From assembly GCA_964535025.1 (NCBI GenBank), contig CAZHRW010000159.1, forward strand, positions 14,527 through 78,526: a DNA stretch of 64,000 bases. The letters are read 5' to 3'. The notes below the pieces were generated by a model, which was not told the origin of the DNA, ran no database searches, and was given only the letters and a program-made list of their open reading frames with translations. The position numbers and the translations under genes were made by a program. Of the stretch, positions 1 to 64,000 are shown one piece after another. The stretch's first letter is position 1; every line of letters begins with the position of its first letter. Source of the stretch: an uncultured Planctomycetales bacterium (GTDB lineage Bacteria > Planctomycetota > Phycisphaerae > SM23-33 > FEN-1343).

Positions 1-735
1 ATGAGCTGGTACCGCCCGGCGGGCTTCGACGCGTACAAGTACTACGTCGCCTGGGGCACCTTGAACCGCAACGCCCTGCACATGCCCCGCGGCGACGAGG
101 TCAACGGCCGCGCGGCGTGGCTGCTCGGCGAGCAGGGCGGCGATTGGGTCGACTACACCTTCGCGTTCACCGCCAACAACGCCTACCTCGGCTTCGGCGG
201 GGGCGTGGTCGTGCTGGTGCGGGACATGGATAACTGCTATTACCTCGACATCGCCCGCGGCCGTCTGGTGCGCAGGCTCGACGGCGCCGAGACCGTCCTG
301 ACGACCGTCGACGCCATTCAGATGCCCGCCACGGGCAGCCGGCGCTACGCCGTCTCCGTGGATGTCGAGCCGGCGGGCGTGACGATCGCCGTCGACGCCG
401 ACGACGACGGCACGACGGACCTGACCTTCACCGACGCCGATCCGACGGCCCTGGCGACGCTGAACGCCGGCGGCGTGGGCTTCCACTGCAACAACTCCGA
501 CAAGTGGCACGTCCTGCGCTTCGACGACCTCCGCGTCGAGGTCGCCGAGACGCGGAGCGGCGCGTCGGGTGATTGCGACGGCGATGGGGACGTCGATCTC
601 GACGATTTCGCCATTGTCAAGCTCAACTTCGGTCGCTCCGGCGTGACCGCCGGCGCCGCCGAGGGCGACCTGGACGGCGACGGGGACGTCGACCTCGACG
701 ACTTCGCGATCCTCAAGACGACCTTCGGGACGTGA
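1..735 (+). CDS. 3' part of a secreted protein (5' end lies outside the window). The C-terminus carries two dockerin-type repeats (GDCDGDGDVDLDDFAIVK and GDLDGDGDVDLDDFAILK).
   Basis: Open frame runs from the window edge to a stop at 735. The tandem Ca-binding dockerin type-I-like repeats are identical in style to the C-termini of the 9912..14918 and 31007..33328 proteins. Confidence 0.55.
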   Translation: MSWYRPAGFDAYKYYVAWGTLNRNALHMPRGDEVNGRAAWLLGEQGGDWVDYTFAFTANNAYLGFGGGVVVLVRDMDNCYYLDIARGRLVRRLDGAETVLTTVDAIQMPATGSRRYAVSVDVEPAGVTIAVDADDDGTTDLTFTDADPTALATLNAGGVGFHCNNSDKWHVLRFDDLRVEVAETRSGASGDCDGDGDVDLDDFAIVKLNFGRSGVTAGAAEGDLDGDGDVDLDDFAILKTTFGT

Positions 736-3245: not shown

Positions 3246-3964
3246 GCGGCGCGAACGAATCCCGGCCGGGGGCGGCGGGACGGCTGGCGTGGCCGGTGGT
3301 GGGGGTGTTGTGCCTGCTGCCGGCGATCCAGACGGCGGCGGCCGTGTGGCTGGAAATCTACCCGGCGGTGACCTATCCGCTCATGAAGGTCGTGATGATC
3401 ATTCTCCCCCTGGCCATCTGGCGCGGCCGGCGCCTGGCGGTGCGGGATGTGGCCGCACGGATCGGCCTGGCACGGCCGCGGCTGCTGAGGGGCGTGGGGA
3501 TCGGCCTGGCGATGGCCGCGATCATCGTCGGCGGCTACGTTCTGCTCCTGCGCGGCCGCGTCGACGGGGCGGGGATCGCCCGCAAGACCACGTCGCTGGG
3601 GTTGCGGGAGTATTATTGGGCGATGGCCGTGGTCATTTCGCTGGCGAACGCCGCCTTCGAGGAATATTACTGGCGGGGGTTCCTGCTGAGCGAACTGCGG
3701 CCGTGGACCGGGTGGTCGTGGCGGCTGACCGTCCTGGCCGGGGCGCTGTTCGGGGTGCATCACGTTTTCGCCCTCGCGCCGCTGCTGGCCTGGCCGCTGG
3801 CGGCCGGGTGCACGGCGATCACGATGGTCGCCGGGGGCGTCTGGGCGTGGATGCGGGTGCGGGGGTGGTCGCTGGTGGATTGCTACCTCAGCCACGTTCT
3901 GGCGGACCTGGCGATCATGGGCGTCGGGTGGGATCTTTTGCAGCAGGCGGCGAGGGCCGGATGA
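3242..3964 (+). CDS. CPBP family intramembrane glutamic endopeptidase (CAAX protease/Abi-like)
   Basis: Multi-TM protein with EEYYWRGFLLSE (EExxxR), FGVHHVFA (FxxxH) and a distal H motif. Translationally coupled on both sides (ATGA overlaps at 3242 and 3961). Confidence 0.75.
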   Translation: MSGANESRPGAAGRLAWPVVGVLCLLPAIQTAAAVWLEIYPAVTYPLMKVVMIILPLAIWRGRRLAVRDVAARIGLARPRLLRGVGIGLAMAAIIVGGYVLLLRGRVDGAGIARKTTSLGLREYYWAMAVVISLANAAFEEYYWRGFLLSELRPWTGWSWRLTVLAGALFGVHHVFALAPLLAWPLAAGCTAITMVAGGVWAWMRVRGWSLVDCYLSHVLADLAIMGVGWDLLQQAARAG

Positions 3965-7913: not shown

Positions 7914-8890
7914 GCATGCGAGAGGTGCTGATGCTGGGGATGCTGACCGGGATGACGCTGGCCGGCGGGTGCGGGGGCGTGCGGGACTTCTACGCCCGCA
8001 GCCTGGTCGTGCACACGCGCCTGCCGGGCCGCCTCCAATTGGCGCTGCAGCCGCCGGACGCGGTGCTGCTGCGTCGGGGGCGGATCGACCAGGCCCGCCG
8101 GATCGCCACGAGCGACGGGGTGTGCATCGACCTGTGGGTGATCAATGCCCGACCGGCGGCGGGGGACCGCCCGCGGGGCACGGTGGTGGCACTGCACGGG
8201 TTGGCGATGTCGCGGGTGGAGATGCTGGCCACCGCCCAACGCCTGGCCGATCGGGGCTTCGACGTCGTTCTACCCGACCACCGCGCGCACGGCCGCTCGA
8301 CGGGGCGGTACACGACCTTCGGGGCCAAGGAGGCCCGCGACGTCCGGGAGGTCCTCGACGTACTCCGGGCCGAGGGGGCCGTGGCGTTGCCCACCTATGC
8401 GGTGGGCGTGTCCATGGGCGGCGCGACGGCCGTGCTGTACGCCGCCGACGATCCCGACTGCCGGGGCGTCGTCGCCCTGGCCCCGCCGGCCGACACCCGC
8501 GCGATCCTCCGACGGCTGCTGGTCGTCTACGCCCCGTGGATGGTGGGTCGCCGGGCCGACGCCGTCGTCGATCGCGCCGGGGCGCTGGCCGATTTCGACG
8601 TCGACGCCACCAGCGCCGCCGACGCCGCTCGACGCCTGACGTGCCCGCTCCTGGTCGTGCACGGCACGTTCGACGCCATCGTGCCGACCTGGCACGGCCG
8701 CCGGGTCTACGCCGCGACCGCCGGGCCGAAACGCCTTGAATGCATCCGGGGCCTCGGTCACGCCCTCATCATGACCGGCCGTGCCGACTGGATCGCCGAC
8801 CAGGTCGACGCCATGGCCGCCGGCCGCTTCGTCGCCAAAGGCACCTGGGCGAGCGATAGGGAGACGCGAGATGAAAAAGTTAGCGGATGA
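7910..8890 (+). CDS. alpha/beta hydrolase (lipoprotein signal, lysophospholipase/esterase-like)
   Basis: LTGMTLAGGCGG lipobox; GVSMGGATA = GxSxG nucleophile elbow. GTGA/ATG start is coupled to the Aas-like stop. Confidence 0.7.
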   Translation: MSMREVLMLGMLTGMTLAGGCGGVRDFYARSLVVHTRLPGRLQLALQPPDAVLLRRGRIDQARRIATSDGVCIDLWVINARPAAGDRPRGTVVALHGLAMSRVEMLATAQRLADRGFDVVLPDHRAHGRSTGRYTTFGAKEARDVREVLDVLRAEGAVALPTYAVGVSMGGATAVLYAADDPDCRGVVALAPPADTRAILRRLLVVYAPWMVGRRADAVVDRAGALADFDVDATSAADAARRLTCPLLVVHGTFDAIVPTWHGRRVYAATAGPKRLECIRGLGHALIMTGRADWIADQVDAMAAGRFVAKGTWASDRETRDEKVSG

Positions 8891-9779
8891 TGCCCTCGAC
8901 GAGTCCCATTCCGCCGCGCCGTCCGTCAGCAAGCCAAAGAAGCCGCTGTGGCGGCGGCTGGTCGTGAGCGTCCTGCGCATCGTCATCGCGGCCTACGTCG
9001 GCCTGGCGCTGGTGCTGACGTCGTGTCAGTCGCGGATTGTCTATCAACCGTCGGAGACCATGGACGCGACGCCCGATGAGGCGGCGATGGAGTACGAAGA
9101 CGTCCGCTTCACCGCCGACGACGGGGTTCGCCTCCACGCGTGGTATATCCCGGCTGAGGGGGCCCGAGGCACGGTACTGGTCTGTCACGGCAATGCCGGC
9201 AATATCTCCGGCCGCCTGGCGACCGCGGCGCTGTTCCAGCGGCTGGGGCTGTCGGTGCTGCTGTTCGACTACCGTGGCTACGGGCTCAGCGAGGGCAAGC
9301 CGAGCGAGGAGGGCACTTACCTCGACGCGGCCGCCGCGTGGCGGTACCTTACCGAGGAGCGGGGGATCGACCCGGCCGGGATCGTGGTCTTCGGCCGTTC
9401 GCTGGGCTCGGCGATCGCGACCCGCCAGGCGGCCGCGGCGCCGCCGGCGGCGCTGATCGTCGAGTCGGCGTTCACCTCGGTCCCGGACGTCGCCAGGCAT
9501 TATTACCGCTTCCTGCCGGTCGGGTGGCTGTGCCGGTTCGACTACGCGACGGAAGCGACCATCGGCCGGGTGCGCTGCCCGGTCCTGGTCATCCACAGCC
9601 GCGACGACGAGATCATCCCCTTCGCCATGGGGCGGCGGGTGTTCGAGGCCGCGGGCGAGCCCAAACGCTTCCTGGCCATCGGCGGCGGACACAACGACGG
9701 CTTCCTCGTCAGCCAGGGCGATTATCTGCGCGAGATCGATTCGGTGCTCGACGAGGTCCTCGGCAAGGACGGGACCTGA
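8871..9779 (+). CDS. alpha/beta hydrolase with N-terminal membrane anchor
   Basis: Start MKKLADD at 8871, preceded by GGAGACG. TM segment LVVSVLRIVIAAYVGLALVL. CHGNAGN and GRSLGSAIA (GxSxG) motifs. Confidence 0.7.
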   Translation: MKKLADDALDESHSAAPSVSKPKKPLWRRLVVSVLRIVIAAYVGLALVLTSCQSRIVYQPSETMDATPDEAAMEYEDVRFTADDGVRLHAWYIPAEGARGTVLVCHGNAGNISGRLATAALFQRLGLSVLLFDYRGYGLSEGKPSEEGTYLDAAAAWRYLTEERGIDPAGIVVFGRSLGSAIATRQAAAAPPAALIVESAFTSVPDVARHYYRFLPVGWLCRFDYATEATIGRVRCPVLVIHSRDDEIIPFAMGRRVFEAAGEPKRFLAIGGGHNDGFLVSQGDYLREIDSVLDEVLGKDGT

Positions 9780-9911
9780 TCGGGGGTGCGAAACAATCCG
9801 GACGATAGGGGGCTGACGGGCGCCGGGGGATGTGATACAATGCCGGTGTCTTGCATTCTTTGTGAACAGGTGGGCCCGACGCGCATTCGCTGAATAGGAG
9901 ACAGACGCGTA

Positions 9912-12900
9912 ATGGAACGTTCGGCAACTCAGCCCCACGGTGGGCATCTCGGCGGTTGTCCGCTTCCCGGTTTCGAGACCCTCGAGCCGCGATTGATGCT
10001 GGCCGGCGACGTGGTGATCTCGGAGTTCATGGCCATCAACGATGGGACGCTGGCCGACGTGGACGGGGATTACAGCGACTGGATCGAACTGCACAACCGC
10101 GGCGACGACGCCGTCGACCTCGACGGGTGGTTTCTCACCGACGATCCGGCCGACCTGACCAAGTGGCGGATCCCCGCGATCACGCTGGCCGCCGGGGAGA
10201 TCGAGGTGATCTTCGCCTCCGACAAGGATCGCGACGACCCGGACGGTGAACTGCACACGGGCTTCAAGCTCAGCGGTTCGGGCGAGTACCTGGCGCTGGT
10301 GATGCCCGACGGGACCTCCATCGCCCACGCCTACGCGCCGACGGTCCAGTACGCCGACGTCTCCTACGGGCTCGACCTGGACGGCAACCCCGCCTACTTC
10401 GACCCGGCCACGCCCGGGGTGCCCAACGCCGGGGACGTGGAACTGCTGCCGGACGTCGAGTTCTCCGTCCAGCACGGCGTCTTCGACGCGCCGTTCACAC
10501 TGACGCTGAGCAGTTCGGTCCAGGATGCGACCATTTACTACACGCTGGACGGCACGGATCCCTACGGGGCGATCGACGCCGTCGAATACACCGGCCCGAT
10601 CGTCATCGACGCGACCACCGTCGTGCGGGCCTATGCCGAGACCTGGGACGCCGAATCCGCGGTGACCACGCAGACCTACATCTCCCTCGCATCGGTCCTG
10701 ACCCAGGGCGACGACCAGACCGCCATCGGCTTCCCCGACATCTGGCACGCCGGGGCCGGCGGCAGCGGCATCTACGACAGCGAATACCGCGACGCCGATT
10801 ACGAGATGGACCCGGACATCATCAACGACCCGGTCTGGGGGCCGCTGCTGACCGAGGCGCTCACCCAGATTCCGTCCATGGCGCTGACGCTGGACCCGTA
10901 CGACTTGTGGGACCCGGAAGACGGCATCTACCCCAACTCGATCCAGCGCGCCAGCCGCGACGACAAGTGGGAAAAGCCCTCGTCGCTGGAGTTGTTTTAC
11001 CCCGACGGCAGCACCGAGGAAGGCTTCACCGTCAACGCCGGCGCCCGCATGTTCGGCGAACTGGCCCGATGGGCCGCGGTCAACGACAAGCAGAGCTTCC
11101 GGATGGTGTTCCAGGGCGAGTACGGCCCGACGAAGCTGGTGACCGACTTCTTCGGCGACTCCGACGTCGACGAGTACGACACCATCGTCATGCGGGCCCA
11201 CTGGGGCAAGTCCTGGCTGCTGGACGAGGCCCTCGGCGACCGGCTGGGGGTTTCCTGGCTGAATTCCGATCCGTCGTCGGCCCAGTACCTCCGCGACCTC
11301 TACGCCCTGACCACCTTCGCCGATACCGGCAACCTCAGCTCCGACGGGCGCATGGTCCACCTGTACCTCAATGGCCTGTACTGGGGCCTTTACGAGGTCA
11401 TCGAACGGCCGGACAACTCCTTCAACGCCGAGCACCGTGGCGGGGACAAGGACGACTACAGCGTCATGAAGGGCGCCGCCGGCACATTCGCCTACCGCGG
11501 CGAGAACACGTATAACATTGGTGTGCACATGCCCTACTACATGTCCAACGGCCGCCTCCAGGACGGTAGCCGCGACATGTGGGACTGGCTCTTCCATACG
11601 TATTTCGATGCCCACGAGGACGGCATCAACATGCTCGAGCGGGACAATGTCACCCCGGTCCGCGGCACGATTAGTGATGAGGAACTGGCCGAGATCGCCC
11701 AATACGTCGACCTCGACAACCTCATCGACTACATGATCACGCTGTGGACGCTCAACCGCGGGGACTTCCCCGGCAAGAACTGGTACGCCGCCTGGGAAGG
11801 CGGCGCCGCCGACACGCCGCCCGACAAGCCGATCCAGTTCTACGTGTGGGACTCCGAAGCGTCCCTGGCCGGTACGGAGATCACGCATTGGACTCCGCCG
11901 GCCGAGCGATGGAACAGCCCCAGCAAGGGTAATGACACCGGCCCGGTCCGCATGTACTGGCGGCTGATCACCAACCAGGGCTTCCGCATCCGCTGGATGG
12001 AACGGGCCCGGGATCTGCTGGGCGACGGCGGGCCCCTCTCGGATGAGGCCTCCATGCAGCGCTACGCGGAGATGGCCTCGCAGATCGACATGGCCGTCAT
12101 CGCCGAATCCGCCCGCTGGGGCGACTCGGCGACGCTGCACATCAACGACCCGATGACCAAGGACGACTGGCAGGCCGAGTACGACCGCCTCATGGCCGAG
12201 TGGTTCCCCGGCCGCGCCGAGATGGTCCTGGCCGAGATGGGGGCGGCGGGGCTGGACGATGCGCCGACGGCGCCCGAGATCGACGTCCCCGGTGGTCTGG
12301 TTCAGCCCGGCACAATGGTGATGCTGAGCACGGTCGGCGACGGCGAGGTATGGTACACGCTCGACGGCACCGACCCCATGGACGGCGTCGGGATGCCGAT
12401 GCCGATGAGCGACCCGCGGCTGCAATGGGCCTTCAACGATACCGGAACCGATCTGGGCACCGCCTGGCGGGAAATCGACTACGACGATTCGACCTGGGGT
12501 ACGGGCACCGGCCGTCTCGGCTATGGCACCGGCGACGAGGATACCGCCATCGGCTTCGGCGACGATTCGCTCGACAAGCACATCACCACCTACTTCCGTG
12601 CCAACATCATCCTGGACGAAGTGCCGGACGATACGGTGACGCTCTACGTCCGCCGCGACGACGGCGTGGCGATCTACGTCAACGGCCATCGCATCGCCGA
12701 GCCGCACGACAATCTGCCCGCCGGCGAGATCACCTACGACACGCTGGCCAGCTCGTCGGTGGCCTTCGGGGCCGAAAACCAGTGGCACACATACGAAGTG
12801 GACCCGTCGCTGTTCGTCGAGGACCACAACGTGATCGCCGCGGAGGTCCACAAGTACAGCCCGCGCGGCTGGGACCTGACCTTCGAGATGACCACCGACC

Positions 12901-14918
12901 TGCCGTTGCAGAGCATCTCGGCCGTCCCCGTCGAACTGTTTACCGACACCCACCTGGTCGTCCGCACGATGCGCGACGGCAAGTGGAGCTACAAAACCGA
13001 GGCCGTCTACATCGTCGACGAGGCCCCGCCCCTGGCGATCACGGAGGTCAACTACAACCCGGCGGCCGCGATGGCGGCCGAATACCAGGCGGGCGCGACG
13101 GACGCCCAGGACTTCGAGTTCATCGAGGTCCACAACCCCACCGGCAATCCGATCCGCCAGATCGGCGCGACCCTGAGCGAGGGCATCACCGCGACGCTGC
13201 CATTGTTCGAACTCGAACCCGGCGAGTACGGCGTATTCGTCCGCGACCGCGAGGCCTTCCAATTGCGGTACGGCACCGACGTGAAGATCCTCGGCGAGTA
13301 CACTCGCCACCTGGGCAACGGGGGCGACCGGATCGTGCTGACCAGCTCCAACGGGGCGGTCCTGGCCGACTTCACCTATGACGACGCCGCCAACTGGCCC
13401 GGCCGCGCCGACGGCCGCGGCGCCACGCTGGAGGTCATCGACACCCAGGGCGACTACAACAGCGACGACACCTGGCGCTCGTCGACCGAGTATCTCGGCA
13501 CCCCCGGCGCCGCCGGGATCGGGCCCGTCGACTCGGTGATCATCAACGAAGTGGTCACCAATCCCGACGGCGGCTCCGACGCGATTGAACTGCACAACCC
13601 CACCGGCGAGGCGATCGACATCGGCGGCTGGTACCTCAGCGACACCGCCGACGAGTACACCCGCTACCGCATCGGCGACGATACGGTCATCCCGGCCGGC
13701 GGATACCTGGTCTTGACGGACGCCGAGCTGGGATTCGGCCTCAGCCGCTTCGGCGAGGACGTCTGGCTCATGGCCGCCGACGGCGACGGGGCCCTGACCC
13801 GGTTCGTCGACCACGTCGAATTCGGCGCGGCCCTGGAGGGGATGCCCTTCGGACGCTATCGGGGCCAGGACGCCGACGGCGATTTCACCGCCCTGGCGAG
13901 CATTACACTCGGCGGGCCCAACGCCGGGCCGTTCCCCAGCGACGTGATCCTCAGCGAAGTCCACTACCATCCCGGCGACCTGGCCGGATCGACTGAGGCC
14001 GACCTGGAGTTCCTCGAGCTGTACAACCGCAGCGATCACCCCGTCCCGCTCGACTGGTACGACGCCAACGGCAACGGCGTCCGCGACGCCGGCGAGCAGG
14101 GCGCCTGGCGGCTGGCCGGCGCCGTCGAGTTCGCCTTCCCGGCCGGCACGACGATCGACCCCGGCGGCACGCTGGTCGTTGTGGGCGCCGCGTCGGTCGA
14201 GGCGTTCCGGACGGCCTACGGGATCGATGAGAGCGTAGCCGTTTTGGGCGCCTGGGACGGCCGGCTGGCCAACGGCCGCGAGCGGATCGACCTGTGCCTG
14301 CCGGCGCCTCTGCGCACCGGGGACACCGAGACGGCCTACGTCGTGGCCGACTGGGTCGACTACAAGGACCACCTGCCCTGGCCCGTCTCGGCTGACGGCG
14401 CCGGCGATTCACTCCACCGCATGCGCGCCTGGGCGTACGGCAACGACGTCACGAACTGGTTCGCCGCCGAGCCCAACCCCGGGCAGGCGGCCCTGACGCC
14501 GGAGGCCCTGGAAGGCGATCTGAACCACGACCTCCAGGTCGACGGCGTCGACATCGGCCTGATCAACCGGGCTGTCCGCGAGGGGGCGACCGATCTGCGG
14601 TTCGACCTGGACGGCGACGGGGACGTCGACGGCGCCGACGTGGACTACCTGCTCCAGGGGATCCTCGGCACGCACGCCGGGGACTTCAACCTCGATGGGT
14701 ACGTCGACCTCGACGACTTCGACGCGCTCAAGACCGGCTTCGGCAAGCCCGCCGGCTGGTCCGGCGGCGACGCCAACGGCGACGGGAGGGTCGACCTGGA
14801 GGACTTCGCCATCCTCAAGAAAAACTACGGCGCCCAGCCGGTCCAGCAGGCCGATCCGGACAACCTGCTGGCGCCCCTGGACGTCCTGGCCGAAGTCGCC
14901 GCCGGCCCCCTTGGGTAG
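9912..14918 (+). CDS. giant secreted CotH kinase-like protein with four lamin-tail domains (LTD) and C-terminal dockerin repeats
   Basis: 1668 aa. LTD signatures VVISEFMAINDG...DWIELHN, ITEVNYNP...FIEVHNPTGNPI, VIINEVVTNPDG...IELHNPTGEAI, VILSEVHYHP...LELYNRSDHPV. CotH core MVHLYLNGLYWGLYEVIERPDNSF. C-terminal DLDGDGDVDGADVDYLL, GDFNLDGYVDLDDFDALK and GDANGDGRVDLEDFAILK dockerin repeats. N-terminal motif ETLEPRLMLAGD. Confidence 0.75.
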   Translation: MERSATQPHGGHLGGCPLPGFETLEPRLMLAGDVVISEFMAINDGTLADVDGDYSDWIELHNRGDDAVDLDGWFLTDDPADLTKWRIPAITLAAGEIEVIFASDKDRDDPDGELHTGFKLSGSGEYLALVMPDGTSIAHAYAPTVQYADVSYGLDLDGNPAYFDPATPGVPNAGDVELLPDVEFSVQHGVFDAPFTLTLSSSVQDATIYYTLDGTDPYGAIDAVEYTGPIVIDATTVVRAYAETWDAESAVTTQTYISLASVLTQGDDQTAIGFPDIWHAGAGGSGIYDSEYRDADYEMDPDIINDPVWGPLLTEALTQIPSMALTLDPYDLWDPEDGIYPNSIQRASRDDKWEKPSSLELFYPDGSTEEGFTVNAGARMFGELARWAAVNDKQSFRMVFQGEYGPTKLVTDFFGDSDVDEYDTIVMRAHWGKSWLLDEALGDRLGVSWLNSDPSSAQYLRDLYALTTFADTGNLSSDGRMVHLYLNGLYWGLYEVIERPDNSFNAEHRGGDKDDYSVMKGAAGTFAYRGENTYNIGVHMPYYMSNGRLQDGSRDMWDWLFHTYFDAHEDGINMLERDNVTPVRGTISDEELAEIAQYVDLDNLIDYMITLWTLNRGDFPGKNWYAAWEGGAADTPPDKPIQFYVWDSEASLAGTEITHWTPPAERWNSPSKGNDTGPVRMYWRLITNQGFRIRWMERARDLLGDGGPLSDEASMQRYAEMASQIDMAVIAESARWGDSATLHINDPMTKDDWQAEYDRLMAEWFPGRAEMVLAEMGAAGLDDAPTAPEIDVPGGLVQPGTMVMLSTVGDGEVWYTLDGTDPMDGVGMPMPMSDPRLQWAFNDTGTDLGTAWREIDYDDSTWGTGTGRLGYGTGDEDTAIGFGDDSLDKHITTYFRANIILDEVPDDTVTLYVRRDDGVAIYVNGHRIAEPHDNLPAGEITYDTLASSSVAFGAENQWHTYEVDPSLFVEDHNVIAAEVHKYSPRGWDLTFEMTTDLPLQSISAVPVELFTDTHLVVRTMRDGKWSYKTEAVYIVDEAPPLAITEVNYNPAAAMAAEYQAGATDAQDFEFIEVHNPTGNPIRQIGATLSEGITATLPLFELEPGEYGVFVRDREAFQLRYGTDVKILGEYTRHLGNGGDRIVLTSSNGAVLADFTYDDAANWPGRADGRGATLEVIDTQGDYNSDDTWRSSTEYLGTPGAAGIGPVDSVIINEVVTNPDGGSDAIELHNPTGEAIDIGGWYLSDTADEYTRYRIGDDTVIPAGGYLVLTDAELGFGLSRFGEDVWLMAADGDGALTRFVDHVEFGAALEGMPFGRYRGQDADGDFTALASITLGGPNAGPFPSDVILSEVHYHPGDLAGSTEADLEFLELYNRSDHPVPLDWYDANGNGVRDAGEQGAWRLAGAVEFAFPAGTTIDPGGTLVVVGAASVEAFRTAYGIDESVAVLGAWDGRLANGRERIDLCLPAPLRTGDTETAYVVADWVDYKDHLPWPVSADGAGDSLHRMRAWAYGNDVTNWFAAEPNPGQAALTPEALEGDLNHDLQVDGVDIGLINRAVREGATDLRFDLDGDGDVDGADVDYLLQGILGTHAGDFNLDGYVDLDDFDALKTGFGKPAGWSGGDANGDGRVDLEDFAILKKNYGAQPVQQADPDNLLAPLDVLAEVAAGPLG

Positions 14919-14939: not shown

Positions 14940-15118
14940 GACTGGAGCCCCCAAAACCCGAAATCCGAAGCACGAAATCCGAAACAAACCTCAAAACGGA
15001 TAAGACGGCAAACGGCAAAACGGCCAAGCCCCGTTGTTTGGTGCTTTTCCGTTTTGCCGTTTCGAATTTGTTTCGAGTTTCGAGTTTCGAGCTTCGGATT
15101 TCGGATTTCCGGCGCGTC
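14940..15118. repeat. REP/MITE-like palindromic intergenic element, copy A (nested inverted repeats between convergent CotH gene and leuA)
   Basis: Outer arms CCCGAAATCCGAAGCACGAAATCCGAAACAAACC (about 14957..14990) and GAATTTGTTTCGAGTTTCGAGTTTCGAGCTTCGGATTTCGGATTTCCGG (about 15064..15112) are reverse complements. Inner hairpin CGGCAAAACGG...CCGTTTTGCCG. Shares modules with the element at 51436..51598. Confidence 0.5.
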
Positions 15119-31006: not shown

Positions 31007-33328
31007 CTACGGGCCGGCAAAGCAGTGCTTGAGGATGGAGAAGTCGTCGAGGTCGACGTCCCCGTCGCCGTCAAGGTCGCCGTTGGCCTCGGTGGCGCCG
31101 GCCGCCATGCCGAAGTGGCACTTGAGGGTGGCGAAATCGTCGAGGTCGTAGCTGCGCTGGGGCACCTCGAAGGCGCCGATGTCGACCGCCTCGCCCTGGG
31201 GGCGGGCGGTCCCGTCGAGGTCGACGCCGATATCCAGGCCGTAGAGGCTTTCGAACAGGTCCACGTAGGCCTCGAGGCCGGCGCCGGCGTCGATGGCCGG
31301 GCTGGGATCGCTCGCCAGGGCCGGCCGCAGGTCGCCGGCGGCGGGGTCGACAAACCGCGGGTCGGCTTCGAGGTTGGCCCAGGCGTGATCGCCCCAGGCG
31401 GCCTGGAAGGCGTCGACGCCGTGAAGAACCGTGGAAGTCGCCCACTTGATCCGGGCGCTGCCGCCGGGCTGGTGGAACAGGTTGTGGGTGACCTGCGACC
31501 CGGCCGCCACGTCGGCGGAGGTGACGGCAAGGTGATGGGACGGCTCAGCGAGGTTGGCGACGATGTTGTTGTGGATGAACCAGCGCTGGTTGCCGCCGGC
31601 GGGGCTGGCAATGCCGGCGTCGACGTCGTGGATCGTGTTGCCCGCGATATGCACCTGGCCGTTGCCCCACCCGATGATCGCGGCGCCGGGCGACCAGGCG
31701 CTGTCGGGATTGTACTCGCCGCTGACGTGGTGGATGTCGCGGATGACATTGCCGAGGATGTAGGCGGTCACGGCCCCGTTGGAGCGGATGCCGTTCTGGC
31801 TGTTATAGATCTCATTATCGAGGATCCAGACGTTCTCGGGGTCGCCGTGGACCACCACGGCTGTCCCGTCCGAGCCCGAGCCGTTGGGGAAGGTCACCGG
31901 CGCGTAGCCGTACATGACGTTTTCGCTGAGGATCACGTCGCGGCTCTGCTTGACGTCGATGGCGTTCTCGCGGTTGTGGTCGATCAGGTTGCGGCCGACG
32001 TAGATCGAGGTGGCGACGTAAGCGGCGTAGGCGGCATTGTAGTAGAGCTGCACGCCATCCTCGCCGTTGCGGGTCATGCGGTTGTCCACGATCCACACCC
32101 GCCGGCTGTTGCCCTGGGGCGTGATGGCGTGCAGGCCGGTCTCGTCGGTGGGCGCGGGCGTGTTGTCGTGGATGTCATTGTCGTAGAAGACGATGTCGTC
32201 GTTGAAATGCCGCTCGGCGTCCCCGCCGAGGGTGTCGGAGACGGGCAGGACGGCCCACACGGCCCGGAACCCCGTCTCCAGGGGCGCCAGGTTCGTCGCC
32301 TCGCCGTGACGGATCGCCACGTGGTCCGAGGGGTTCAGCACCCGCAGGTAGCCTTCGGCGGTCCCCACGGTGTCGGTCCGGAAGTATTCCAGGACCAGAT
32401 ACGAGCCCCGCACGCGGACCTCGTTGGCGAACACGGCGCGGGCGCCGGGGCCGGCCCCCCGGACGAAGATCGGACGTTCGGCCGTGCCCCGCCCGGTGAT
32501 GCCCAGCCGCGGACCGTGGTAATTGGCGTAGGTGTACGGCCCGCCGTGGACCTCGACGACGCTGCCGGGGGGCAGATCGAGCGGGATCGTCCGACGCGGC
32601 CGATCGGGCGTGCCGAAGGGGTTCCCCGCGTCGGTGGCGTCGCCGTGGGCGTTGTCGATGTAATGGGTGTAGGGTCCGTCGGCGCCGAGGCGGTAGGGCT
32701 TGGGGCCGTCACCGTAGTCGAAGGTGTGTGAGGTGTCGGCGTACATCCAGTGCGTTTCCTCGATGCCGAACGACGGCGCCGGCACGCCGACCGGCGGGAC
32801 CCAGCAGCCGACCCGCTGCACCCGGACCGCATCGGCGACCAGCAGCCCTTCGCCGGTCAGCCGCACCGACAGCGTCTCGCCCCGCACCAGCAGCGGCGCG
32901 CCCAGGTCCTCCCAGGCGGTCTGGGCCTCGGTGAAGTCGTCCGGCGCGCTCCGCTGGTCGACGAGCAGCTCGCCGAGCATGCGGGTCGTCTGGCCGTCGA
33001 GGGGGTTGGCGATCGTGAATCGCGCCGCGGCGGCGCGGTCGGCGGCGGCCGTCCACGACGCCGACACGCGGTAGTGGTAGCCCGGGCACAGACCGGTGAA
33101 CGTCCACGTGGCCTCGGCGCCGGCCGTGCCGGTCGTGCGTGCGTCGCCGTCGTGGCCGGCGGTTTCGATCGTCCAGGCGCCGGTCGTCGTGAAACCCGCG
33201 CCCCCATCGTCGACGATCCGGGGCAGGGTCAGCGGGTCGGCGCTGAGCAGCAGGCGGTGTTCAAGCGTCTCCATCAAGGCACGCGCGCGGGGGCGCGGCC
33301 TGTCGTGGCGTCGGTCGGGCTGCATCAC
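31007..33328 (-). CDS. secreted right-handed parallel beta-helix (pectate-lyase-fold) protein with C-terminal dockerin repeats
   Basis: Repeated GNxIxDxxxGI beta-helix rungs (NVIRDIHHV..., IAGNTIHDVDAGI..., FIHNNIVANL). C-terminal ANGDLDGDGDVDLDDFSILK. N-terminal METLEHRLLLSAD motif. Confidence 0.7.
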   Translation of the reverse strand: MMQPDRRHDRPRPRARALMETLEHRLLLSADPLTLPRIVDDGGAGFTTTGAWTIETAGHDGDARTTGTAGAEATWTFTGLCPGYHYRVSASWTAAADRAAAARFTIANPLDGQTTRMLGELLVDQRSAPDDFTEAQTAWEDLGAPLLVRGETLSVRLTGEGLLVADAVRVQRVGCWVPPVGVPAPSFGIEETHWMYADTSHTFDYGDGPKPYRLGADGPYTHYIDNAHGDATDAGNPFGTPDRPRRTIPLDLPPGSVVEVHGGPYTYANYHGPRLGITGRGTAERPIFVRGAGPGARAVFANEVRVRGSYLVLEYFRTDTVGTAEGYLRVLNPSDHVAIRHGEATNLAPLETGFRAVWAVLPVSDTLGGDAERHFNDDIVFYDNDIHDNTPAPTDETGLHAITPQGNSRRVWIVDNRMTRNGEDGVQLYYNAAYAAYVATSIYVGRNLIDHNRENAIDVKQSRDVILSENVMYGYAPVTFPNGSGSDGTAVVVHGDPENVWILDNEIYNSQNGIRSNGAVTAYILGNVIRDIHHVSGEYNPDSAWSPGAAIIGWGNGQVHIAGNTIHDVDAGIASPAGGNQRWFIHNNIVANLAEPSHHLAVTSADVAAGSQVTHNLFHQPGGSARIKWATSTVLHGVDAFQAAWGDHAWANLEADPRFVDPAAGDLRPALASDPSPAIDAGAGLEAYVDLFESLYGLDIGVDLDGTARPQGEAVDIGAFEVPQRSYDLDDFATLKCHFGMAAGATEANGDLDGDGDVDLDDFSILKHCFAGP

Positions 33329-33511
33329 AGATTTGTCTCACTTATGCTTGGTCGGATTGGCGGGGGGATCCTGATCCGTCGGGTGATGATGAGCGTCCGT
33401 GCTCATAGTGCTTCTATAGCCTCAGTTGGACTTCCCGTCCAGAGAGAAAGTCGGTATACTCACGGGCGAGACTTGAGCCGATGTGTCGGCGGTCACCGTA
33501 GGGAGCCCACC

Positions 33512-45985: not shown

Positions 45986-47437
45986 CTACCGGGCCGTCGC
46001 CGCCGCGGCGGCCGGACCCGAGGCCGGCGAGGCGGCACGCAGCCGCGCCAGGGCCGCGACCCACGGGCCCGTATCGGGCGCGGCCACCGTCACGATCTCG
46101 CCGCCGGTCACATCCGCACGGCCGCCCCAGTGGCCCGTGGCGGGGTTGATCCACCGCAGGTCGAAGCGGTCGGGATGCTCGTGGAGGTCCAGGCCGACCG
46201 AGCCGCCGCGGGGGAAGTACAGGGCGTAGGCCTGGCCGGGCCTGGCCGCGAGGTAGGCTTCATCGTCCCGGCGATCCGTGAGCAGGTGGTTGGCCGGGTC
46301 AAGGTCCCACAGCTTCATGCAGTACTCGAGCTTGCGGGCGGCCTTGAGGGCGGCGACGCTCGGGGCGGACAGACCCAGCCCGGAGGGAGGGCGGTGGAAC
46401 CGGGCGGCCGCGGCGCCGCCGAGGATATGGCGCCACCAGCGGTTCAGGCCTTCGGCGGTGTCGCCGTACTTGCCGCCGTCGGCGCCGTAGGTCTTGACCG
46501 TGTTCACCGGTCGCGGCCGGTCGGCGATGTGGCTCCGGACCCATTGAAAGTTGTCCCAGTGGGTCTGGCCGCTCTTCTGGTTGTTCTGCGAGACGTCGGC
46601 GAAGTCATAGCGCTCGGGGTGATCGAGCGTGTGCCGGTGCTCCTTGCTTGTAAGGTCCCACGCGTCCCACATTTCGGTGATGCACACCTCGACGCCGGCC
46701 TCGCGGGCCCGCCGGCGGATCCACTCGGCCCAGTAGATTGCCCACTGCGGGTCGCCGGAGGTCTCGTTATCGATGCAGTAGAGCACGTGGTCGTGCTTCA
46801 GTGTGTATGAGAGCATCTTGTCGACGAACCGCTGCTGGTAGGGCAGGACGACGGTGTTGTCACGCTGCTTGGGCGTGGTGTAGAAGAACGGCTGGGCGTT
46901 GCGGCCGGGGTGCTCGGGATACTCCGGGGCCAGGCCGGACGTTTCGTGGGTGTAATTGACATTGTTGGCGGGGTTGAACGGGTCGGCCCGCCAGTGGTCG
47001 CGGGAATGGTCGAAGCGGTCCCACAGCTCGATCTGCACGATGATGCCGCGCTCGTGCGTGAGGCGGAGCATGGTCTCGAAGCGCTGCCAGTACTCAGCGT
47101 TCCACGCGTCGAGATCGTAGGTGCCGTCCGGCCGCCGCGCGAAGGCGTGAATCTCGTAGCCGCGGTCGTTCCGGTCGCTCATGGTGTTGCGGATGTAGTT
47201 GGCCCCGGCGGCGGCCATGGCGTCGAGGTGGGCTTCGAGGTCGGGTATCTGGAAGAGGTTGTCGTCGTCGCTGGCGCCAAGCAGCAGGACCGGCCTGCCG
47301 CGGTATTGCCAGTAGCGCGGGTTGGCGTCCCAGGGGCGGATGCGGTCGCCGGCCCGCCTGTCCGGGTCCGACGGCGCGGCGGCCAGACTGATTGTCAACA
47401 CGAGGAGGAGGGACGGAAGCATGACAGTGTAATGCAT
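45986..47437 (-). CDS. secreted clan GH-A TIM-barrel glycoside hydrolase (GH5/DUF4038-like)
   Basis: Signal peptide. IDNETSGD (acid/base NE) and CITEMWD (nucleophile TE) in the expected beta-strand 4/7 spacing. Confidence 0.6.
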
Positions 47438-47567
47438 GGAACTCTCCCGAGGCCTGCGCGTAGGTGTACGTCGGCGAATCTAACGTTTCCGCTGTGTGAA
47501 GGCAAAGCCCAAAAAGCGCCGGGTCCCCGCTCAAGGGGTGCCGACGACCCCCGCCGTGGGGAAAGGC

Positions 47568-51435: not shown

Positions 51436-51598
51436 CCCGGCCCTGCGGGCCGGGAAATTCGAAATACGAAACCAATCCGAAACGGCAAAACAGCACAGCT
51501 CGAAACGCCAAGGCGTCCGCCCAAGTCGTGTCGGGCTTTATCCGTTTGCCGTATTGGGAGTTGTTTCGTATTTCGAGTTTCGTGCTTCGGATTTCCGC
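51436..51598. repeat. REP/MITE-like palindromic intergenic element, copy B (between the FAH-family gene and the ABC-F gene)
   Basis: Right arm CGGAAATCCGAAGCACGAAACTCGAAATACGAAACAA (reverse complement of 51560..51597) matches the left arm of copy A almost base for base. Shares the ACGGCAAAAC/CCGTTTGCCG inner module. Contains hairpin CCCGGCCC-TGC-GGGCCGGG at 51436..51454. Confidence 0.5.
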
Positions 51599-61923: not shown

Positions 61924-62104
61924 CCCAACACCTTGACCTTACCGTAGTCTAGGACATCCGCCGGCGACATCATCTCTTTTACGGCCGGCGGGCCGTCGGC
62001 GGTCCATCCCAGCGGGCAAGCCGATGAAATCGTTCGACATGAACACCGATCTCCGCTAGACTTCCATCCTGAATTGTCCTGCATTTTGTAAGGAGACAGA
62101 TGCC

Positions 62105-64000
62105 ATGCGATTCGCGCCCTCATTCGTTATTCCCGTCTGTATCGCCGCTTGTATTTCCCTCACCGTCGCGCAGCCGGCCATCCCCGACCGCGACCCGGCC
62201 CCCGCCCGGCCGGTCCGGTTGATCGAGGCGGTCCGCGGCCAGCATCCGCGCCTCCTCTTCAGCCAAGACGAGGTCCCCGCGCTGAAAGCGTTCGCCAAGA
62301 CCAAGCGGGGCCAGCAGTTCTGGTCGGAATTGACCGATTACCTCCCATCGTCGCGGCCGCCGTCGGAGCCGGAGTTCCTCCGCAACGCCACCGACGGCCA
62401 GCGCCAGGGCTTCTGGCGGATGCCCACCGTCGCCCTCCATTACGTCCTGACGGGCGATCAGCAGTCCTTCGACCGCAGCGTGGGCTACATGAAGCTCCTG
62501 CTGGAACTCGAACACTGGGAACTCGGCGGCGAGACCGATTACGGCATGAGCGCCGCCAACATCATGATCGGCGCCGCCCTCACCTACGACTGGCTGTACA
62601 ACGACCTCGACACCGAATTCCGCAACGCGTTCCGCGATAAACTCTTATTGCAGGCCCGGCGGATGATGCACAACGGCCACCTCGGCACTACCGGCGGGGG
62701 CGGCTACTGGCGGGGCGACCCGCAGAACAACCACCGCTGGCACCGCAATGCCGGGCTGGTCCTCTGCGCCCTGGCCGCCGCCGAACCCGATCGGGACGAC
62801 GATGACTGGCTGCTGGCCAAGGTCCGCGAGGAACTGGACTTCGTCACACGCTGGCTGCCCGAGGATGGCACGAGCCACGAGTCGTTCAGCTACGCCATCT
62901 TCGGCATGGCCCACCTGACGCTCGCCCTGGAAGCCTCGGACCGCTGCCTGGGCACCGAGTATCTGCAAATCCCGTTCATGAAAACTCTTCCGCGCTTCAT
63001 GACGGCCAGCTTCGCACCCGGGCTCGACAAGCGCTTCCGCTTCGGCGACCAGGGTGGCAGCAACGTGGGCAACCTCGGCTACGACGTGGCCCTCTTCCGT
63101 CCCATCGCCGTCCATAAGCTCAGCGACCATCTGGCCGTACTGAACGAACAGCTCGACCGCCACGGCGTCGGGCCGACGCGGGCATGGCTGGCGCTGCTGT
63201 GGTACCCGCGGGACCTCGAGCCCGGGCGCGTCGCGAACCTGCCCAACACGCACTTCTTCGACGATCTCGGCATCCTTATCGCCCGGAGCGGCTGGGAAAG
63301 CGGGCAGGCGGCGGCGATGTTTAAGTGCGGCCCCTTCGGGGGTTACACGCTCAACCGCTACCGGGCCGCCCGCGGCGGCCAGTACATCAACGTCGCCCAC
63401 GACGACCCCGACGCCAATGCGTTCCTCCTGTTCAACGAGGGGGCCTTCCTCACCGAGACGGACGGCTACTCCAAGCACAAGCAGTCGGCCAACCATAATA
63501 CCATCCTCATCAACGGCACCGGCCAGACCGTCCCCGGACGGGCCGAAGGGGGCGGCTGGTCCCAGCCCGGCGGGGATATGACCGAAACCGCCGTCGTAAC
63601 CGCTTTCGCGGAAAACGGTAAGAACGTCGCCATCGAGGGCGAGGCGTCGGGGTTCTACCCGGTCAATCCCCGCGGCGGCAACGAACGGCCGGCACTCGAG
63701 CGCTTCCGCCGGAGCTTCTTCTGGATCGACGGCCGCTACATCCTCGTCCTCGACGACATCCGCGCGGGCGAGCCCGTCGAGATCACCTGGCTGATGCAGG
63801 GCAAGGACCTCGACGCATCCGACGACGGCGAAGGACGTTACATCCTCACCTCCGGCGAGGCCGCCTGCCCGTTCCACGTCGTCACGACCGCCCCGGCGAC
63901 CGCGCGGATCGTCGACTCGCCCGCCGACAGCCGCGGTGAGCCGCTCGGCTGGCGACAGTTGCGCCTCACCAGTCGGACCACGTCGACGCTCGTGGTAAGT
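62105..64000 (+). CDS. secreted heparinase II/III-like polysaccharide lyase family protein (3' end outside the window)
   Basis: Frame opens at ATG 62105 and is still open at the window edge, so it is absent from the track. Signal peptide MRFAPSFVIPVCIAACISL. HPRLLF and DDPDANAFLLF...HNTILINGTGQ regions typical of alginate-lyase/heparinase II/III architecture. Confidence 0.65.
   Translation, partial: MRFAPSFVIPVCIAACISLTVAQPAIPDRDPAPARPVRLIEAVRGQHPRLLFSQDEVPALKAFAKTKRGQQFWSELTDYLPSSRPPSEPEFLRNATDGQRQGFWRMPTVALHYVLTGDQQSFDRSVGYMKLLLELEHWELGGETDYGMSAANIMIGAALTYDWLYNDLDTEFRNAFRDKLLLQARRMMHNGHLGTTGGGGYWRGDPQNNHRWHRNAGLVLCALAAAEPDRDDDDWLLAKVREELDFVTRWLPEDGTSHESFSYAIFGMAHLTLALEASDRCLGTEYLQIPFMKTLPRFMTASFAPGLDKRFRFGDQGGSNVGNLGYDVALFRPIAVHKLSDHLAVLNEQLDRHGVGPTRAWLALLWYPRDLEPGRVANLPNTHFFDDLGILIARSGWESGQAAAMFKCGPFGGYTLNRYRAARGGQYINVAHDDPDANAFLLFNEGAFLTETDGYSKHKQSANHNTILINGTGQTVPGRAEGGGWSQPGGDMTETAVVTAFAENGKNVAIEGEASGFYPVNPRGGNERPALERFRRSFFWIDGRYILVLDDIRAGEPVEITWLMQGKDLDASDDGEGRYILTSGEAACPFHVVTTAPATARIVDSPADSRGEPLGWRQLRLTSRTTSTLVVS

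Follow-up and report, generated by a model that had tools for sequence, protein, structure and literature searches.

In Bacillus, CotH is a single-domain protein of 360 aa whose targets in the mother cell, CotB and CotG, are both encoded alongside it. The B. subtilis enzyme phosphorylates the Ser-rich repeats of these two proteins and is inactivated by the substitutions D228Q and D251A (PMC7821199). In Clostridium thermocellum, a Firmicute whose cohesin scaffold is documented, Cthe_0239 (lamin-tail domain (LTD), LTD, Fn3, CotH) and CseP/Cthe_0044 (CotH) are among the cloned cellulosomal proteins (PMC6083626). Cellulosomal proteins carry a dockerin by definition; the function of these two is not known (PMC12484212). 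Planctomycete surface proteins combining an LTD with cohesin-dockerin modules have been proposed as part of the Nemodlikiaceae 'planctosome' (Andrei et al. 2019, PMC6461901), itself only a hypothesis, which involves peptidases and proprotein-convertase P domains and no CotH. We examined a planctomycete gene that brings several of these elements together, located in a 64-kb stretch of DNA (hereafter, the window), and compared it with these systems and with related proteins of the PVC superphylum.

The gene (9912..14918, like all features below on the + strand) has an ATG start and encodes 1668 aa followed by a stop codon. A Shine-Dalgarno-like AGGAG (9896..9900) lies 11 nt before the ATG, and an in-frame stop at 9891-9893 makes 9912 the earliest possible start. 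It is a real coding gene under purifying selection, with codon-position GC of 0.66/0.45/0.91 in the + frame (GC3 0.913) and a dN/dS of 0.37 over the whole gene relative to its 76%-identical orthologue (P0002). An antisense ORF of 1830 aa (8880-14372) was rejected as a GC-rich shadow frame, its codon-position GC (0.90/0.46/0.65) being a non-coding pattern. Promoter and terminator scans returned numbers at chance level, and an Rfam scan of the window recovered two tRNAs only, both outside the gene. In the databases the protein is represented by P0001, which is 100% identical over its 1640 aa and begins at M29, which removes the N-terminal LEPR-XLL motif.

The initial annotation had described a CotH kinase-like protein with four LTDs and a dockerin, and a Pfam scan bore out all of these domains. 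In the full-length scan, LTDs were recovered in four stretches (E 4e-47, 159.5 bits in total). Their individual placement was obtained from segment scans in which each segment was scored alone against the PF00932 cut-off of 34.3 bits. LTD1 (aa 31-138, 10002..10325) scored 51.3 bits (E 1.8e-13), LTD3 (aa 1207-1291, 13530..13784) 58.7 bits, and LTD4 (Pfam match aa 1343-1437, 13938..14222) 37.9 bits; by eye, the LTD alignment extends the last of these to about aa 1525. LTD2 (aa 1040-1156, 13029..13379) scored 30.3 bits alone, below the cut-off, and is one of the four stretches of the full-length scan. Between LTD1 and the CotH domain lies a CHB_HEX_C_1/Fn3_assoc Ig-like domain (aa 188-256, 10473..10679; PF13287 E 1.3e-15, PF13290 E 7e-15). 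The N-terminal half of a second such domain was placed at aa 793-823 (12288..12380; 19.8 bits over profile positions 2-32 of 67, short of the cut-off), with a weak candidate for its C-terminal half at aa 1003-1037 (12918..13022). Splicing aa 780-826 to aa 1001-1045 covered profile positions 2-59 of 67 at 20.9 bits, below the cut-off of 22, a weak indication that the intervening module is nested inside a split CHB_HEX_C_1 domain. That module, which is PA14-like (aa 838-995), and the LEPR-XLL motif had both been missed in the initial annotation. The mature protein would thus read LTD1, CHB_HEX_C, CotH, PA14-like, LTD2-LTD4, two dockerin-like modules and a short conserved tail of 28 aa (AQPVQQADPDNLLAPLDVLAEVAAGPLG, 14832..14915), which is 75% identical in the orthologue. 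With a single LTD ahead of CotH and the other three downstream, this order differs from that of Cthe_0239, with which the combination of LTD, Fn3-like and CotH domains is nevertheless shared. The PA14-like module, the double dockerin and the LEPR-XLL leader set the planctomycete protein apart from those of C. thermocellum.

We hold with moderate confidence that this architecture represents an exported, probably cell-surface modular enzyme with a CotH phosphotransfer domain, encoded by a vertically inherited, Phycisphaerae-like chromosomal gene. Its CotH domain would most likely bind a nucleotide and a divalent metal and, by analogy with B. subtilis CotH, would transfer phosphate onto a substrate located outside the cell or in its envelope. 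The LTD, Ig-like and PA14-like modules may serve as spacers and binding modules. The need for a phosphate donor outside the cell is a point against reading the protein as an extracellular kinase.

Identification of the catalytic domain as CotH, also claimed in the initial annotation, was confirmed by sequence profiles and by structure prediction. The Pfam match (PF08757) spans aa 450-761 (nt 11259-12194) and profile positions 39-312 of 322, with 74.6-77 bits against a cut-off of 23.8 (E 1.3e-20). A profile built from 20 family sequences matched B. cereus CotH (5jd9, E 3.9e-6), whereas the CotH region used as a single sequence in phmmer yielded chance matches only among PDB sequences. The region as modelled (aa 270-800, 10719..12311) was predicted by AF2 with a pLDDT of 78.8 and a pTM of 0.85. 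Its top Foldseek matches were the B. cereus structures 5jd9 and 5jda (E 1.3e-13, probability 1.00, TM 0.75 on the target), and other kinase folds ranked below them. The planctomycete and Bacillus proteins therefore share a Pfam family and an atypical kinase fold at about 14% sequence identity. They also have in common the D...N...D catalytic core and, as aligned, the G/R/K residues of the N-lobe. They differ in a lineage-specific insertion of about 70 aa (aa 522-590) and in an ESARWGD motif, both found in the planctomycete domain, and the planctomycete protein is multi-modular and predicted to be exported.

Active-site residues were mapped with the help of Freitas 2020 (PMC7821199) and a CotH sequence of the B. 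cereus group found with tblastn. The core GD618FPGKN623WY ... VWD647SE (11763..11852) aligns with D223, N228 and D246 of B. cereus and with the Bacillales motif FDGFxxNY...PWDYD, so that D618, N623 and D647 are the putative catalytic Asp, Asn and metal-binding Asp. We infer that B. cereus D223 and D246 correspond to B. subtilis D228 and D251, given the identical 23-residue spacing and an offset of +5. In the N-lobe, K393 (11088..11090) pairs in the alignment with K54, part of the KKSY stretch conserved in Bacillales CotH, and may take part in ATP binding; together with G382 and R386, which align with the conserved G46 and R50, it is invariant or nearly so across the family. Among 122 related domains, K393 is a lysine in all, and D618, N623 and D647 are kept in 120, 121 and 120, respectively. 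A pseudokinase, the outcome under which the kinase claim would have fallen, is unlikely given these near-invariant active-site residues, and the domain would apparently be active as a kinase.

The same pattern bears on a second interpretation, in which the protein has no catalytic role and functions as a surface adhesin or a structural component, the CotH domain offering a binding surface and the LTD, PA14-like and dockerin modules mediating adhesion. Such a role has been proposed for the Mucorales CotH invasins, which are ligands of host GRP78 (PMC9973265), and a structural role has been discussed for cellulosomal CotH (PMC12484212). The accessory modules of the planctomycete protein resemble adhesin modules. 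The scarcity of ATP outside cells also counts in favour of this reading. The K/D/N/D residues are, however, near-invariant across 122 domains that are only 30-60% identical to the query, and the kinase N-lobe (aa 270-450) has a dN/dS of 0.14, the lowest in the whole protein, a pattern expected of an enzyme and not of a mere binding surface. We consider a purely adhesive or structural protein quite unlikely and retain the exported phosphotransferase as the preferred interpretation.

In the C-lobe, the ESARWGD motif (aa 732-738, 12105..12125) is kept in 118-122 of the 122 domains at each position. It is not conserved in three Bacillales CotH proteins: opposite it, the Bacillus CotH sequence used first has a gap in the mafft alignment and 'CESIRP' in the hhalign alignment, and the other two show no conserved E-S-x-R. 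We treat the motif as apparently clade-specific. Downstream of the catalytic domain, aa 838-995 (12423..12896) gave no Pfam match at E values up to 10. It is conserved in 88 of 120 homologues, with a location along the chain that varies. In Foldseek its AF2 model (pLDDT 82) resembled carbohydrate-binding domains of the PA14 type (6x8a, E 1e-5) and the sugar-binding domains of GH2, with TM scores of 0.32-0.43. The predicted fold suggests a PA14-like beta-sandwich that is probably sugar-binding, in our proposal for glycan; the likeness is purely structural and, at TM 0.3-0.4, modest.

A sugar-binding module at this position raises the possibility of a glycan-directed kinase, in which the PA14-like and CHB_HEX_C domains would target CotH to envelope glycans, EPS or an external polysaccharide, and the sugar itself would be phosphorylated. 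Such an activity has parallels among the Fam20/CotH-related secretory kinases, of which Fam20B (a xylose kinase) and POMK phosphorylate sugar. The placement of a PA14/GH2-like fold directly after the catalytic domain, its recurrence in the homologues and the presence of CHB_HEX_C_1 domains, typical of glycan-active enzymes, are consistent with it. Elsewhere in the window there are genes for beta-helix, Golvesin_C and heparinase II/III-like proteins, and the ESARWGD motif is not shared with the protein-kinase CotH of Bacillales. Against this reading, sugar binding is a prediction from fold likeness, no glycan-synthesis or glycan-degradation operon was linked to the gene in the neighbourhoods examined, and the sole characterised CotH enzymes phosphorylate proteins (PMC7821199). 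Phosphorylation of sugar by this protein appears rather unlikely. A more general proposal, which we regard as speculative and very unlikely, is that LTD-CotH proteins of the PVC type are extracellular phosphotransferases guided by the PA14-like lectin to surface or matrix glycans or glycoproteins, with the ESARWGD motif possibly adapting the substrate or the donor. If true, these proteins would be the bacterial equivalent, and a widespread one, of Fam20B, Fam20C and POMK, kinases of the eukaryotic secretory pathway.

The initial annotation had called the protein secreted or surface-exposed, which the N-terminus supports. It carries the LEPR-XLL or 'Planctomycete extracellular' motif (aa 20-35, FETLEPRLMLAGD, 9969..10016), scored at 21 bits by NF012209 (cut-off 17) and at only 15.4 bits, below the cut-off of 25.5, by PF07595, a family regarded in PMC8567305 as a cell-surface signal peptide of planctomycetes. 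Homologues have either a hydrophobic Sec-type signal peptide or a LEPR motif immediately ahead of LTD1. The orthologue and about half of the homologues retain LEPR-XLL right in front of LTD1, where it occupies the place of the Sec signal peptide of verrucomicrobial homologues. Given this position, it probably directs export in place of a Sec signal peptide. Inspection of the sequence revealed no hydrophobic h-region at the N-terminus of the protein, which leaves the export route putative.

At the C-terminus, the dockerin reported in the initial annotation is present above the cut-off, at 28.4 bits in two stretches of the full-length protein (Dockerin_1, PF00404, cut-off 22.9) and at 36 bits for the repeats at aa 1540-1640 when the C-terminal segment was scored. 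Its description as a single module does not fit the number of calcium loops. Four of the form D-x-[DN]-x-[DN]-x-x-[VI]-D-x-x-D, beginning at aa 1536, 1565, 1591 and 1620, point to what are probably two tandem dockerin-like modules. The first (aa 1533-1585, 14508..14666) was delimited by motif scan and PF00404 stretches and holds the loops at 1536 and 1565; the second (aa 1589-1640, 14676..14831), with the loops at 1591 and 1620, contains the best PF00404 stretch (aa 1589-1637). The DNA of module 2 is 72-74% identical to the dockerin repeats (555-728 in the window, family D1) of a neighbouring beta-helix protein encoded 9 kb upstream, at 1-735. We propose that the pair would attach the protein, in a Ca2+-dependent manner, to a partner protein or the cell surface.

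Tethering through a dockerin-cohesin pair, as initially suggested, would make the protein a subunit of a cellulosome-like 'planctosome', its double dockerin binding a cohesin scaffold on the outer membrane alongside further dockerin proteins, the beta-helix protein among them. This idea concerns anchoring and is compatible with the kinase, glycan-kinase and adhesin interpretations alike. The above-cut-off dockerin with its four calcium loops and the second dockerin-bearing protein nearby fit such an assembly, and there are precedents both in the cohesin-dockerin modules and LTD-bearing anchoring protein proposed for Nemodlikiaceae (PMC6461901) and in cellulosomal LTD-CotH proteins (PMC6083626). 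The planctosome is, however, itself a hypothesis, and we detected no cohesin in the ten large ORFs scanned in the window, so that dockerin-cohesin tethering stays a conjecture. The genes lying up to 10 kb away on the source contig likewise include no cohesin, and no cellulase context was seen in the window. Of 120 homologues, 53 terminate in dockerin-like Ca2+ repeats, predominantly LEPR-bearing ones, and this would equally fit a generic planctomycete surface-attachment or Ca2+-stabilised module. Membership in a cohesin-based complex is rather unlikely.

The rarity implied by the initial annotation did not hold: the cellulosomal proteins Cthe_0239 and CseP (PMC6083626) provide precedent, and proteins with this domain arrangement number in the thousands. 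We found more than 3900 homologues with shared architecture in Planctomycetota, Verrucomicrobiota and other phyla, and at least 5400 clusters at 50% identity that match the catalytic domain; NCBI names the homologues 'lamin tail domain-containing' or 'CotH kinase family' proteins. LTD/CotH proteins of the PVC superphylum (P0002, P0005, P0045, P0040 and others) are alike in architecture and conserved residues, with no essential difference from the protein described here. Their paralogues vary in LTD number, in additional PA14, Laminin_G_3, Big and TSP3 domains, and in N- and C-terminal sorting modules. The architecture is thus already known, and the gene is an unremarkable representative of a very large annotated family.

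The 76%-identical orthologue is full-length and syntenic, and three related MAGs preserve the order alpha/beta hydrolase, LTD-CotH gene, leuA, trpC. Unlike cotB and cotG beside Bacillus cotH, no candidate substrate gene lies beside the LTD-CotH gene in the neighbourhoods examined. A bAvd-like gene near the orthologue, together with a DGR preprint using the term 'CotH-like', raised the idea of a DGR target, which was dropped as the window has no template/variable repeat pair. Our literature search returned no report of a substrate for an LTD-CotH-type protein, in agreement with the initial view that the function of such proteins in non-sporulating bacteria is unknown. The role of exported CotH-family kinases in these bacteria is the question behind a large family with a near-invariant active site. 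This single locus, from an uncultured organism and with neither a linked substrate gene nor a cohesin partner identified, makes that question no easier to test. Its value lies in offering a clean, full-length and apparently catalytically intact example of the family. Two further observations are useful for the family as a whole, namely that the LEPR-XLL leader is cut off by database gene calls and that the PA14-like module lies outside Pfam coverage.

The CotH protein belongs to a known and very common protein type, whose members already carry the NCBI names "lamin tail domain-containing protein" or "CotH kinase family protein". Among 8000 candidates examined, >3900 proteins matched at E ≤ 1e-10, and the catalytic region alone matched 5409 clusters at 50% identity (1901 at E ≤ 1e-30). 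Genome matches spanned Phycisphaerae, Sedimentisphaerales, Pirellulales, Verrucomicrobiales, and Kiritimatiellia, and extended to Bacteroidota, Anaerolineales, KSB1, Sumerlaeota, and Myxococcota. Cellulosomes of bacteria and fungi are likewise known to contain CotH-dockerin proteins, which have no assigned function (PMC6083626, PMC12484212); Cthe_0239 of C. thermocellum, with a similar module set (lamin-tail domain (LTD), LTD, Fn3, CotH), is among the cloned cellulosomal proteins (PMC6083626). A single locus adds little by itself, and the interest lies with the function of the whole family.

The CotH gene (9912–14918, + strand, 1668 codons) starts at an ATG with AGGAG 11 nt upstream, and an in-frame stop at 9891–9893 excludes a longer N-terminus. 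In the public database the gene is instead called from M29 (nt 9996; P0001, 1640 aa), which loses the LEPR-XLL motif. The longer form from ATG 9912 is supported by the preceding Shine-Dalgarno sequence and by the conserved N-terminus of a syntenic, 76%-identical orthologue. Codon-position GC (0.66/0.45/0.91) follows the normal coding pattern for a ~69% GC genome. An antisense ORF of 1830 aa (8880–14372, − strand) covering most of the gene was rejected, as its inverse codon-position GC (0.90/0.46/0.65) identifies it as non-coding, a shadow frame produced by the GC-rich gene opposite. The window is nearly identical, base for base, to JGI metagenome contig MLSed_10000151 (131.5 kb), with zero differences in the CotH gene. 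A cluster of small indels in a G-rich stretch (3264–3336, 35 nt total) and five single-base differences beyond it indicate that the window is another assembly of the same population.

Pfam scans of the whole protein and of separate segments bore out the architecture proposed in the initial annotation, namely a CotH domain, four LTDs, and dockerin repeats. The CotH domain (aa 450–761) scored 74.6 bits against a cut-off of 23.8. The LTDs lie at aa 31–138 (51 bits), 1040–1156 (30 bits scored alone, slightly below the cut-off), 1207–1291 (59 bits), and 1343–1437 (38 bits), with a CHB_HEX_C_1/Fn3_assoc domain at aa 188–256 (E 1e-15). The C-terminus matched Dockerin_1 (28–36 bits, cut-off 22.9) and carries canonical Ca2+-loop motifs at four places (from aa 1536, 1565, 1591, and 1620), which probably make up two tandem dockerin-like modules; the 28-aa tail that follows is 75% identical in the orthologue. 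Two features, the LEPR-XLL motif and a module at aa 838–995, were absent from that annotation.

The CotH fold is present and its catalytic residues are intact. A single-sequence search of PDB sequences with the CotH region found no CotH structure, and a profile built from 20 family members matched Bacillus cereus CotH (5jd9, E 3.9e-6). The best structural matches of an AlphaFold model of aa 270–800 (pLDDT 78.8, pTM 0.85) were 5jd9 and 5jda (E 1.3e-13, TM 0.75), followed with far weaker scores by lipid kinases, HipA, and CtkA. In an alignment with three Bacillales CotH sequences, one of them from the B. cereus group, "RGD618FPGKN623WY ... VWD647SE" fell opposite the Bacillales motif "NFDGFxxNY ... 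PWDYD", and the N-lobe residues G382, R386, and K393 corresponded to conserved G46, R50, and K54. The two aspartates are 23 residues apart in B. cereus CotH, the same spacing as in B. subtilis D228/D251; the B. subtilis kinase is inactive when these two residues are mutated (PMC7821199). K393 was conserved in all 122 CotH domains compared (119 homologues), N623 in 121, and D618 and D647 in 120 each. The gene is under purifying selection, and dN/dS against the 76%-identical orthologue reached its minimum, 0.14, on the kinase N-lobe. The fold match, aligned residues, conservation, and low N-lobe dN/dS together argue against a pseudokinase and against a missing CotH domain; the conservation and the low N-lobe dN/dS also count against the rival reading of the protein as a non-catalytic adhesin. 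An ESARWGD motif (aa 732–738) is nearly invariant in the clade of this protein and not conserved in Bacillales CotH. A lineage-specific insertion at aa 522–590 (11475–11681), found in the closest relatives only, shows little conservation (60% identity to the orthologue) and was modelled with low confidence. Some homologues combine multiple CotH domains in one polypeptide, such as P0003 (2840 aa, four domains) and P0166 (4723 aa).

The LEPR-XLL motif (aa 20–35; NCBIfam, 21 bits vs 17) occupies the export-signal position, and no hydrophobic signal peptide was found at the N-terminus. In 120 homologues, either a classical signal peptide (mostly verrucomicrobial) or LEPRxLL (planctomycete) directly precedes the first LTD, and the literature treats PF07595 as a cell-surface signal peptide specific to planctomycetes (PMC8567305). 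Export is therefore well supported by comparison with homologues. Dockerin-like loops close 53 of the 120 homologues, chiefly those with the LEPR motif. A second dockerin (Pfam 27.8 bits) ends a 923-aa Beta_helix/NosD-like protein whose C-terminal end occupies 1–735 (+ strand), so at least two dockerin-bearing surface proteins lie within 15 kb; their dockerin repeat DNA (555–728 and 14666–14830) is 72–74% identical. In a rival reading, the CotH protein would be a subunit of a cohesin-dockerin complex; for other Planctomycetes, a cohesin-dockerin "planctosome" that includes an LTD-bearing anchor has been hypothesized (PMC6461901). No cohesin was found among ten large window ORFs scanned or among genes up to 10 kb away on the source contig. 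The initial annotation is thus partly supported: architecture, intact kinase, and export hold, and attachment through a dockerin-cohesin pair is conjecture.

The module at aa 838–995, covered by no Pfam model, recurs at varying positions in 88/120 homologues. Its AlphaFold model (pLDDT 82) resembles PA14 carbohydrate-binding and GH2 glycosidase sugar-binding domains in Foldseek (E 1e-5, probability 1.0, TM only 0.3–0.4), and it may, tentatively, interrupt a second CHB_HEX_C_1 domain, whose two parts would be aa 793–823 and 1003–1037. We hypothesize that the CotH protein, once exported, stays attached to the cell surface, and that its kinase domain uses a nucleotide to phosphorylate a protein or glycan of the envelope or the extracellular space. 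Glycan targeting would fall to the PA14-like module, a role also relevant to the rival in which the protein is specifically a glycan kinase; the LTDs would act as spacers or binding modules, and the dockerin pair would mediate Ca2+-dependent attachment.

MAGs with copies 76%, 70%, and 47% identical share the gene order alpha/beta hydrolase, CotH gene, leuA, trpC, which identifies the CotH gene as a stable chromosomal resident. It lacks a conserved functional partner, and no gene for a Ser-rich substrate lies next to it. MAG GCA_048622735.1 encodes two tandem LTD-CotH paralogues (L005, 4787–14770; 1660 and 1589 aa) besides the syntenic orthologue, hence at least three copies in the lineage. A GTTTCGA-rich 58-nt repeat (79% identical), matching no Rfam family, has one copy in the gap where the CotH gene and leuA converge (15045–15102) and another where two minus-strand genes meet (51538–51595). 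An orthologous locus (L004) carries a 23S_rRNA_IVP/bAvd-like four-helix-bundle gene (11210–11569, − strand) between FGGY kinase and RNase III genes; this gene is absent from the window, where no DGR-like repeat pair was found. Three further probable surface or polysaccharide-related proteins, a Beta_helix + Golvesin_C protein (31007–33337, − strand), a DUF6298/Collagen_bind_2-like protein (45986–47479, − strand), and a heparinase II/III-like protein cut by the window end (62060–64000, + strand), suggest a glycan-degrading lifestyle.
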